A stretch of DNA of 64,000 nt from the NCBI RefSeq assembly GCF_058153355.1, contig NZ_CM177019.1, one strand, 5' to 3'. Below are positions 22,280 to 22,719 of this stretch, piece after piece (position 1 is the stretch's first letter; every line of letters begins with the position of its first letter). The notes under the pieces were generated by a model. The model was not told where the DNA came from and did not search any database. It saw only the letters and a list, made by a program, of their open reading frames with translations. Made by a program: the position numbers and the translations under genes.

Positions 22280-22659
22280 AATGAATCCTTTTTCGATTTA
22301 TGAGAATAAATACTCATTTAAGGGTGAAAACATTTTGCCTGCAAATGATTATCAAGAAATATAACATTATCGAAGTATTCAAATTAACAACTATTAAATA
22401 ATATTAAACATTTTTAACGTAAACATTAAGAATATTCATCTTGTTATCTGTCTGTATTTTAACCAGAATTAAATAAGTATTAGATGCCGTATGAATATCT
22501 CGAAATGTTGCTGTGTATCACATACAAATCATCACCGCAGGACCATAGTATTTACATAAGGTTTGTCCCCCGGAGGTAGTCATCGCAGCAATCGAGTAAA
22601 TTAGCTTCACCACGGTATATTGTTTCCGTAGAATACCCATAATTATAAGAGAGGTTGTT

Positions 22660-22719
22660 ATGATTGAACGTGAACTGGGGAACTGGAAAGACTTTATCGA
22701 AGTTATGCTTCGTAAGTAA
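22660..22719 (+). CDS. ypfM: 19-aa micro-protein YpfM
   Basis: ATG-initiated MIERELGNWKDFIEVMLRK with GAGAGG Shine-Dalgarno; recalled as the annotated K-12 small protein. Confidence 0.6.
   Translation: MIERELGNWKDFIEVMLRK

Follow-up and report, generated by a model that had tools for sequence, protein, structure and literature searches.

The closest described system is STnc250 of Salmonella, which is the ypfM small mRNA, ~220 nt long and enriched 4-fold with Hfq by co-immunoprecipitation (Sittka et al. 2008, PMC2515195). The same study names yneM (PMC2515195), and yneM/mgtS, catalogued as STnc570, is likewise a small-protein mRNA first listed as an sRNA. Like other RNAs of this kind, first catalogued as sRNAs or dual-function RNAs, the ypfM RNA is short and Hfq-associated, has its own promoter and terminator, and encodes a tiny protein. 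The set used here for comparison also includes AzuCR, SgrS-SgrT, and Spot 42-SpfP.

Three further systems resemble parts of the locus. Like ypfM, the leader-peptide attenuators trpL, mgtL, and tnaC have a micro-ORF that is preceded by a good Shine-Dalgarno sequence and lies ahead of an intrinsic terminator. At class II activator-dependent promoters, the factor site is centred at -41.5, as for CRP or FNR. The third comparison is with the AT-rich divergent regions of E. coli that are bound by H-NS; Shimada et al. 2014 (PMC3946193) list the spacer between ypfM and yffB with an H-NS flag, divergent promoters, and RNA polymerase sigma-70 binding.

The DNA analysed here (the window, 64,000 nucleotides in full) is E. 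coli chromosome, judging from its gene content and from the RefSeq annotation of matching DNA. The gene order is that of K-12, and the locus is annotated alike in 5,425 of 5,426 complete E. coli genomes. The gene ypfM is placed between acrD and yffB and is divergent from yffB, the first gene of the operon yffB-dapE-ypfN (PMC10392735). The main parts of the locus are as follows.

20792-21919, minus strand: dapE (ORF list)
21923-22279, minus strand: yffB, ArsC-family reductase (ORF list and RefSeq annotation of identical or near-identical E. coli DNA)
22280-22552, no strand: AT-rich part of the divergent control region, 273 bp, 26.7% GC, upstream of every mapped ypfM start
22660-22719, plus strand: ypfM (b4606, "protein YpfM" in RefSeq), 19 codons and stop, ATG to TAA, encoding MIERELGNWKDFIEVMLRK
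22818-25931, minus strand: acrD, convergent with ypfM

A first-pass annotation had proposed that the interval from yffB to the end of ypfM is a regulatory leader or a small-RNA locus. We consider it likely that the interval is a divergent control region between two separate transcription units, together with the beginning of a small mRNA gene. The AT-rich stretch serves as control region for both yffB and ypfM, the latter being a known gene that is transcribed separately and has a real 19-residue protein product; the locus is thus for the most part ordinary and has been described before. Novelty may remain in two smaller points, namely the conservation of synonymous sites in ypfM and a conserved element at -41.5 of its main start.

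The 19-codon micro-ORF was placed correctly, and its end coordinate is exact: translation gives a TAA stop ending at 22719. The encoded sequence is identical to that of K-12, matching RefSeq E. coli DNA is annotated as ypfM, and identical or near-identical 19-residue ORFs adjoin yffB in about 70 of 80 Enterobacterales loci. The intact formyl-Met 19-mer has been detected by top-down mass spectrometry, and YpfM has also been found by DIA and PRM (PMC12529367). Two short elements frame the reading frame.

22650-22654, plus strand: Shine-Dalgarno sequence AGAGG, 5 nt before the ATG; AAGAGAGG is invariant in the alignments
22698-22712, plus strand: small hairpin CGAAG-UUAUG-CUUCG in the last ORF codons, -5.3 kcal/mol, the first helix of the Rfam STnc250 model

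The coding sequence is conserved beyond the level of the protein. ypfM reaches a synonymous codon identity of 0.90, whereas no value above 0.836 occurs in 457 windows of 19 codons taken from yffB and dapE, and rare codons are kept, GGG in 34 of 34 representatives and CTT in 30 of 34. This conservation would reflect a constraint at the RNA level, although in so short an ORF the contexts of translation initiation and termination could also be its source. The hairpin at the ORF end is the sole helix kept by RNAalifold (26 sequences, 5 bp), with one pairing-preserving double change, in Mangrovibacter.

Transcription of ypfM was assessed from the start list of PMC4681348, which covers one study and one strain (BW25113) in mid-exponential phase. 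The list has no header and was assigned to E. coli through the stated reference genome and through adjacent entries, which fit ypfJ. Its U00096.2 coordinates were converted by placing the ypfM ATG, 2588888, at position 22660 of the window; K-12 and the window show no indel between the starts and the ATG. Class I starts combine 5'-triphosphate enrichment with a step-up in coverage, whereas class II starts lack the step-up. Three starts lie on the ypfM strand.

22553-22557, plus strand: main ypfM start, class I (RVS_(I)-2588995, range 2588991-2588995; PMC4681348)
22640-22641, plus strand: second ypfM start, class II, 20-nt leader, 6-7 nt past TAGAAT (RVS_(II)-2588908, range 2588907-8; PMC4681348)
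22671, plus strand: third, weak 5'-triphosphate end inside the ORF, class II (RVS_(II)-2588877; PMC4681348)

Each of the three is found about 7-8 nt past a -10-like hexamer, and these hexamers had been located beforehand from conservation. For the end at 22671, the hexamer is TATGAT at 22658-22663, overlapping the ypfM start codon, which leads us to infer that this end is a promoter-derived start. The other two starts show that ypfM has its own transcription, from two nested promoters near the ORF, with the following elements.

22498-22523, plus strand: conserved upstream element TTTCAAAAT-A-TTGC-N6-TCACAT (alignments)
22544-22549, plus strand: -10 hexamer CATAGT of the distal (main) promoter, with the class I start 4-8 nt downstream
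22580-22601, plus strand: conserved leader/promoter motif (T)CATCGCAGCAATCGAGTAAAT, consensus AATCAnAGCAATyGGTTAAAT in the alignments, abutting the P1 -35 hexamer
22606-22634, plus strand: proximal promoter P1, TTCACC-17-TAGAAT, the sole sigma-70-like site found in 21900-22900

The proximal promoter P1 is of the sigma-70 type: its hexamers match 9 of 12 positions, are 17 bp apart, and have the start at 22640-22641 downstream. PMC3946193 likewise gives these hexamers for ypfM. They are conserved while the spacer between them varies, and gTAkAAT is retained, at a constant distance from the ATG, as far away as Yersinia, Dickeya, and Rahnella.

The distal promoter is built differently. No -35 hexamer is found at 16-18 bp from CATAGT; xATAxT is conserved, and the preceding 20 bp vary in sequence but not in length. 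In some taxa, this stretch holds GC-rich dyads, which we considered as a minus-strand terminator or a MerR-type operator; the idea was dropped because K-12 and the window have no dyad and the sequence is not conserved. Further upstream, the centre of TTGC-N6-TCAC falls at 22514.5, i.e., -41.5 from position 22556. Nearly all of the aligned Enterobacteriaceae keep the upstream element, at 148-158 nt from the ypfM ATG, and it is absent from Yersinia, Dickeya, and Rahnella; no further copy of TTGC-N6-TCACAT occurs within the window.

A -10 hexamer without a -35 hexamer and with a conserved element at -41.5 makes the distal ypfM promoter appear analogous to class II activator-dependent promoters, and it would depend on a putative factor at TTGC-N6-TCACAT. 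The left half of the element matches a CRP site at 2 of 5 positions, unlike a true CRP site, and the right half misfits an FNR site. Consensus scans of the spacer for CRP, FNR, Fur, ArgR, and marbox sites gave nothing above shuffled sequences.

From the distal start, the RNA has a leader of 107 nt and a length of about 260 nt, and from the proximal start a leader of 20 nt and a length of about 175 nt. Both end at a terminator common to acrD.

22553-22659, plus strand: 5' UTR of the main ypfM transcript, 107 nt from the mapped start, 41% GC
22743-22767, plus strand: 3' UTR hairpin, -8.4 kcal/mol, variable in sequence between strains and genera
22780-22811, both directions: intrinsic terminator of ypfM (plus) and acrD (minus), AAAAAGGCGACA-N8-TGTCGCCTTTTT

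The terminator, with GGCGAC...GTCGCC and the T run conserved in all genera aligned, lies 60 nt past the ypfM stop codon and 7 nt past that of acrD. It folds symmetrically (-18.9 kcal/mol on the plus strand and -18.4 kcal/mol on the minus strand) with a U5 tail on each strand, and given this and its closeness to the acrD stop, its earlier description as bidirectional is structurally correct. It is the terminator and the 3' hairpins that drive the fold of the full transcript (z = -2.48); the long-range pairing of leader and ORF in the minimum free energy structure is not conserved. Five of the differences of the window from K-12 cluster in the 3' UTR hairpin, the K-12 hairpin still forms, and other genera have different hairpins at the same place. 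In the 5' UTR, no conserved secondary structure is found among 26 genera or species (RNAalifold -6.9).

These data bear directly on the proposal that the whole AT-rich tract of ~380 bp is a transcribed regulatory leader, riboswitch- or attenuator-like, with ypfM as its leader peptide. An unusually long AT-rich gap is indeed followed by a micro-ORF and a strong terminator, and a real 5' leader exists. It is 107 or 20 nt long by the mapped starts (PMC4681348), however, and not ~380 nt: all three starts lie at or after 22553, and the Northern signal of ~220 nt in Salmonella allows a leader of ~100 nt at most. The AT-rich part shows no folding signal, is unalignable between genera, and has no cis-regulatory match in Rfam, and the real leader has no conserved structure. 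Among Rfam families at E values up to 10, nothing of the riboswitch or cis-regulatory kind rises beyond chance level, and no consensus leader structure is seen.

The role suggested for the peptide fares no better. Unlike trpL, mgtL, and tnaC, ypfM is followed by no further cistron, shows no alternative terminator/antiterminator pairing, and lacks a regulatory codon run in its ORF, whereas the amino-acid sequence of YpfM is conserved and the peptide is sufficiently stable for its intact form to be detected. RNAalifold on 26 sequences found no mutually exclusive terminator and antiterminator structures, and only the 5-bp hairpin in the ORF. Since the terminator lies 60 nt past the stop codon and the adjoining gene, acrD, runs convergently, so that a same-strand downstream gene is absent, ypfM cannot be a classical leader peptide; the conserved peptide sequence and its accumulation as an intact formyl-Met 19-mer (PMC12529367) also speak against this role. 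Taken together, the long-leader proposal is very improbable, and we retain the reading of a promoter region ahead of a separate small gene.

The suggestion of a small-RNA locus fared better. A scan of 21900-22900 against Rfam brought out one notable family and no cis-regulatory one; the other matches in this region (E up to 10) are terminator look-alikes, namely the ends of CsrC, sraA, and DapZ, and chance hits.

22699-22818, plus strand: match to Rfam RF01409 STnc250 ("Hfq binding RNA"), covering the ORF end, 3' UTR, and terminator, 39.4 bits, E 5.7e-6

Model positions 1-94 are fully matched, with an insertion of 32 nt vs. 7 nt in the model, and the score is below the gathering score of 42. 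At the orthologous place beside yffB, the score is 43.1 bits in E. albertii, 75.2 in Citrobacter, and 112.9 in Salmonella. As the score of the window is under the gathering threshold, its locus is the orthologue of the STnc250 founding locus and not a formal member of the Rfam family.

The likeness to Salmonella STnc250 extends from the place between acrD and yffB and the 19-codon ORF to the order of an ORF-end hairpin, a 3' UTR hairpin, and the GGCGAC terminator. Unlike in Salmonella, the E. coli 3' UTR is ~25 nt longer and holds a different hairpin, which accounts for a covariance score just under the threshold (39.4 vs. 42). The Rfam model spans the last 94 nt only, leaving out the leader and the promoters. 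For Salmonella, a ypfM RNA of 227 nt is predicted if transcription begins at the distal start and one of 146 nt if it begins at the proximal start, against the published Northern size of ~220 nt. No entry for ypfM was found in the supplements of Adams 2021, Cappable-seq 2016, and Tjaden 2023.

The small-RNA character of ypfM raises the question of its partners on Hfq, which we deduced by matching feature values in a RIL-seq feature table. The table records 2,829 chimeric fragments for the ypfM CDS and one partner, which has the values of the arcZ row (96 interactions, SIC 0.921422). The 5' UTR entry (ypfM.5UTR) has 140 chimeric fragments, and its partner values are those of uhpT.EST3UTR (UhpU). 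We infer that the main ligation partner of ypfM on Hfq is ArcZ, within the coding region; from the matched values we also deduce that, in these K-12 data, the ypfM 5' UTR is ligated on Hfq to the sRNA from the uhpT 3' UTR, UhpU. The predicted duplexes of ypfM with ArcZ and with UhpU have best sites of -17 to -18 kcal/mol, within the window background. Pairing of ArcZ within the first ypfM codons, between the putative segments GAACUGGGGAAC of ypfM and the UUUCCCUGG region of ArcZ, would control YpfM synthesis or the stability of the ypfM RNA.

The relationship might also run the other way, the ypfM transcript being a dual-function RNA that encodes YpfM and also works in trans on Hfq, e.g., by titrating ArcZ as a sponge or through the RNA from 22671. 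The transcript carries an Hfq-type 3' module (hairpin, A/U-rich linker, and U-tailed terminator), the Salmonella RNA is enriched on Hfq (PMC2515195), and the many chimeric fragments of the CDS with one partner have ypfM in the second position in 31% of cases (SIC -0.688 with k = 1). Synonymous-site conservation above that of every control window points in the same direction, and the 22671 end would give an RNA without start codon beginning with the invariant GAACUGGGGAACUGG. That end, however, is class II, without a step-up in coverage, and the duplex prediction with ArcZ is not distinctive. The sRNA-likeness score of ypfM in the published table is 0.009, whereas known sRNAs in that study score at least 0.1. 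With 1-2 partners that are themselves sRNAs, ypfM does not show the pattern of an sRNA with many partners and a mostly second position; unlike the dual-function RNAs, it resembles in its RIL-seq features an sRNA target rather than a regulator. We found no experiments on ArcZ and ypfM in the searchable literature. A dual function is thus rather unlikely, and we would give the same low weight to the related idea that the whole 57-nt coding sequence is under RNA-level selection as an Hfq-dependent pairing platform for ArcZ, making ypfM a sponge or dual-function regulator.

There remains the AT-rich DNA itself. The spacer between yffB and ypfM (22280-22659) was described in the first-pass annotation as ~380 bp of strongly AT-rich DNA, and we measured 380 bp with 30.8% GC, compared with 53.2% in the whole 64-kb window; its core (22320-22500) has 23.8% GC. 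It is the most AT-rich place in the window, the runner-up having 37.1% GC, and only 0.05% of all 380-bp windows are equally AT-rich. The statement that it contains no ORF holds in the useful sense: there are six ORFs of 22-40 codons, none of them conserved, and stops or frameshifts interrupt every one of them already in E. albertii.

The start list of PMC4681348 contains no plus-strand start upstream of 22553. With all mapped ypfM starts at or after this position, ~273 bp of AT-rich DNA are therefore untranscribed on the ypfM strand. This part has no folding signal on either strand (z of -0.19 and -0.61), and between genera its identity equals that of shuffled controls. The list likewise holds no start for yffB, so that part of the AT-rich DNA could be yffB 5' UTR on the other strand. 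The yffB promoter must lie within 22280-22552, and the AT-rich spacer would hold this weak promoter of yffB-dapE-ypfN. One candidate was noted.

22358-22366, minus strand: candidate extended -10 of yffB (TGTTATATT on the minus strand)

The block AATATAACATT does not vary among Escherichia, Citrobacter, and Salmonella, but this constancy does not extend beyond them. For the spacer between ypfM and yffB, PMC3946193 gives an "HNS" flag, a single table entry, and an RNA polymerase sigma-70 SELEX peak. The high-affinity H-NS motif TCGWTWAATT is absent from the spacer. AT-richness and fast sequence turnover are typical of H-NS-bound regions, and the ypfM-yffB spacer is alike in both. Its central part is 236-238 bp long in Citrobacter, Enterobacter, and Leclercia, while the sequences are no more alike than shuffled controls. 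Such near-constant length without likeness in sequence is not expected of a purely neutral spacer. The remaining 273 bp (27% GC) would be a fast-evolving, H-NS-coated spacer that separates the two divergent units, and not an RNA leader.

An AT content so extreme for E. coli, together with the H-NS flag (PMC3946193), might instead suggest a horizontally acquired remnant of foreign or mobile-element DNA, silenced by H-NS and not native regulatory DNA. The tract is also frequently polymorphic and serves as a strain-source marker (PMC11267920), and one isolate has an IS1 insertion within it. Yet 5,425 of 5,426 E. coli genomes carry the tract, at 95-100% identity, and every member of the Enterobacteriaceae examined has a spacer of similar size and AT bias separating yffB from ypfM. 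It has no conserved ORF, and IS1 in a single isolate is a secondary event. A foreign origin therefore has very little probability, and a native control region that would be bound by H-NS is the reading that we keep.

Overall, what had been flagged as a leader is ordinary promoter and spacer DNA ahead of a catalogued small-protein gene, and for this reason the locus needs no new category. The retention of spacer length but not of sequence across several genera hints at an architectural constraint on divergent promoter regions bound by H-NS. YpfM is among the most reliably detected micro-proteins of E. coli, and the promoters, the conserved upstream element, and the probable link to ArcZ provide handles on the conditions under which it matters. 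With synonymous sites conserved beyond anything in the adjacent genes, ypfM offers a compact test case for overlapping constraints on protein and RNA. If the ypfM RNA did act as an ArcZ sponge or a dual-function regulator, it would link this oxygen-responsive sRNA to a protein of 19 residues.

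The window is a stretch of E. coli chromosome, and the ORF list places the 19-codon ypfM, whose product is MIERELGNWKDFIEVMLRK, between divergent yffB and convergent acrD:

20792-21919, minus strand, dapE
21923-22279, minus strand, yffB
22660 (ATG) to 22719 (TAA), plus strand, ypfM
22818-25931, minus strand, acrD

Among 5,426 complete E. coli genomes, 5,425 share this arrangement, as does K-12, and coverage of the yffB–ypfM spacer falls below 80% in about 43 of the 5,425. With 30.8% GC against 53.2% window-wide, the spacer (22280-22659, 380 bp) is the lowest-GC 380-bp stretch of the 64 kb, its core (22320-22500) reaching 23.8%; equally low values occur in 0.05% of windows. 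The next most AT-rich stretches of this length are 38670-39049 (37.1% GC) and 53828-54207 (37.4% GC). Short ORFs within the spacer are disrupted already in E. albertii, and the terminator at 22780-22811, 7 nt beyond the acrD stop codon, has nearly equal folding energies on the two strands (−18.9 and −18.4 kcal/mol), with a U5 tail on each. The results for composition, ORFs and terminator therefore confirm the observation of the first-pass annotation, namely about 380 bp of AT-rich DNA without an ORF and a bidirectional terminator after ypfM.

The shift from U00096.2 to U00096.3, which we take to be +1978 here, agrees with the retrieved coordinates and therefore places the ypfM ATG at 2588888 in U00096.2. 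Differential RNA-seq of K-12 BW25113, with U00096.2 as the reference genome, gives reverse-strand starts at 2588995 (class I, range 2588991-2588995), 2588908 and 2588877 (both class II), where class I denotes 5'-triphosphate enrichment with a coverage step-up and class II enrichment only; no forward-strand (yffB) start is listed near the spacer (PMC4681348). Class II is as expected where promoters nest downstream of a stronger one. The window and K-12 spacers differ at 3 positions with no indels, and the converted starts are as follows:

22553-22557, plus strand, ypfM main start (class I, 2588995)
22640-22641, plus strand, ypfM second start (class II, 2588908)
22671, plus strand, ypfM third start, inside the ORF (class II, 2588877)

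All three lie 7–8 nt downstream of a −10-like hexamer: CATAGT, TAGAAT and TATGAT (22658-22663), respectively. These positions put the true leader at 107 nt (22553-22659) for the main start and at 20 nt for the proximal one, and the 273 bp upstream of 22553 are excluded from ypfM RNA; a leader exists, as proposed earlier, but not one of 380 nt. Transcript lengths predicted from the main and proximal starts are about 260 and 175 nt for E. coli; for Salmonella they are 227 and 146 nt, and the Northern estimate of about 220 nt in that species (PMC2515195) fits the distal start.

For the third 5'-triphosphate end, a putative extended −10, TGTTATGAT (22655-22663), overlaps with the start codon; RNA from 22671 would start with the invariant GAACUGGGGAACUGG and lack the start codon. 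The leader also carries, at 22572-22601, a semi-conserved Shine-Dalgarno-like GGAGG (CCGGAGG, CCAGGAGG, CTGGAGG), after which many genera have a six-codon ATC...TAA frame with no canonical start codon.

Spacer alignments across 18 genera, followed by alignments of the 175 nt 5' of the ATG from 72 loci, outline a conserved promoter footprint:

22498-22523, plus strand, upstream element TTTCAAAAT-A-TTGC-N6-TCACAT, Enterobacteriaceae only
22544-22549, plus strand, distal −10 CATAGT, in the same Enterobacteriaceae-only block
22606-22634, plus strand, proximal promoter TTCACC-17-TAGAAT, the single sigma-70-like site in the scan

The proximal promoter keeps a constant distance to the ATG out to Yersinia, Dickeya and Rahnella, with a variable inter-hexamer spacer, and was also assigned to ypfM in a genomic SELEX study (PMC3946193). 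The distal, main promoter has no −35; centred at −41.5 relative to 22556 lies a conserved element that, across Enterobacteriaceae, is separated from CATAGT by 20 bases of constant length and variable sequence. This element suggests an activator; none of the factor consensuses tried fits it above chance.

The TCACAT–CATAGT spacer is CAAATCATCACCGCAGGAC in the window and K-12, and a GC-rich dyad allele, AATCCCTGTCACAGGGCC, occurs in the GTDB E. coli representative SCPM-O-B-8794 (L002). In E. coli isolate F374 (L083, 2057-3155), an IS1A insertion and deletion have removed the yffB N-terminus and all of the spacer except the 95 bp nearest ypfM (window 22565-22659), so that the distal promoter is lost and the proximal one retained. 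The ypfM intergenic region serves as an E. coli host-source marker (PMC11267920).

As RNA, the AT-rich part folds no better than shuffles on either strand (z −0.19, −0.61), its inter-genus identity equals that of shuffled controls (e.g., 0.58 vs 0.57 for E. coli vs Enterobacter), and the Rfam scan gave no match to the tract. Genomic SELEX lists binding of RNA polymerase sigma-70 holoenzyme to the ypfM<>yffB spacer, which it also flags 'HNS' (PMC3946193), and the Salmonella spacer has a MarA ChIP peak (PMC10268841). On these grounds, we infer that the tract is H-NS-coated divergent promoter and spacer DNA housing the yffB-dapE-ypfN promoter, for which one candidate position can be proposed:

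22358-22366, minus strand, candidate yffB extended −10 TGTTATATT

The TGTTATATT block is invariant across Escherichia, Citrobacter and Salmonella in the alignment. From yffB to the upstream element (window 22280-22507), the AT-rich part measures 228 bp in E. coli, 227 bp in Kosakonia and 236–238 bp in Citrobacter, Enterobacter and Leclercia (loci compared with the window: L005, L026, L046, L047 and L019); thus, its length seems to be constrained and its sequence not. A palindrome, TGAGAATAAATACTCA, at 22301-22316 (22–37 bp 5' of the yffB ATG) is partly kept between genera and could be an operator or a yffB 5' UTR hairpin. Salmonella studies of SdsR sRNA targets and of the anaerobic Fur regulon reportedly mention yffB and might bear on its promoter.

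Contrary to the earlier suggestion, ypfM is no leader peptide. No co-transcribed gene lies downstream, the comparative alignment revealed no conserved secondary structure in the leader, and about 70 of 80 Enterobacterales yffB loci have a divergent 19-residue ORF of the form M-I/V-E/D-x-E-L-G/N-x-W-K-D/E-F-I-E/D-x-M-L-R-K. Top-down mass spectrometry detected the intact formyl-Met YpfM and covered it in full; DIA and PRM detected the peptide as well (PMC12529367).

At the RNA level, the locus resembles a small-RNA gene. The top Rfam match is the STnc250 'Hfq binding RNA' at 22699-22818 (39.4 bits, E 5.7e-6), slightly below the gathering score of 42; the orthologous place scores 43.1 in E. albertii, 75.2 in Citrobacter and 112.9 in Salmonella, and the E. 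coli ypfM 3' UTR hairpin is longer than and different from that of STnc250. STnc250 and the ypfM small mRNA are one and the same RNA in Salmonella, enriched 4-fold with Hfq and growth-phase-regulated (PMC2515195). In an E. coli RIL-seq feature table (PMC8175672), the ypfM CDS has 2,829 chimeric fragments with one partner, whose values (96 interactions, SIC 0.921422) are identical to the arcZ row, and 140 fragments join ypfM.5UTR to a partner matching uhpT.EST3UTR (UhpU). With an sRNA-likeness score of 0.009 (PMC8175672), ypfM shows a target-like pattern. Predicted ArcZ–ypfM and UhpU–ypfM duplexes were not distinctive.

The 3' UTR hairpin at 22743-22767 forms in both the window and K-12, with 5 clustered differences between them (vs 3 in the whole 380-bp spacer), and other genera have unrelated hairpins there. 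In E. albertii (L003, 4266-4346), a match to the REP-derived, nucleoid-associated RNA naRNA4 (82 bits) lies downstream of dapE/ypfN.

The same amino acid in ypfM is encoded by the same codon in 0.84–0.90 of comparisons, vs 0.56–0.60 for yffB and dapE, and none of 457 19-codon control windows attains the synonymous identity of ypfM (control maximum 0.836); GGG and CTT, both rare codons, hardly vary. Such codon conservation argues for selection on the ypfM RNA sequence itself.

In the mechanism that we consider most likely, two nested promoters, the distal one lacking a −35 and presumably assisted by an activator at the −41.5 element, drive a small monocistronic ypfM mRNA that is translated into YpfM, is handled by Hfq via a typical 3' module, and is probably controlled by ArcZ inside the coding region and possibly by UhpU in the leader. 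The data show the layout of the locus, its transcription starts, its conservation and that the protein exists, whereas the activator, the ArcZ effect, the part played by H-NS and the site of the yffB promoter are inferred. Of the earlier interpretation, the sRNA-like locus and a real, short leader are retained, but not the 380-nt leader or the leader peptide. As ypfM/STnc250, the locus has been described before; modest additions that may be new are the constraint on synonymous sites, the conservation of the −41.5 element and that of the spacer length.
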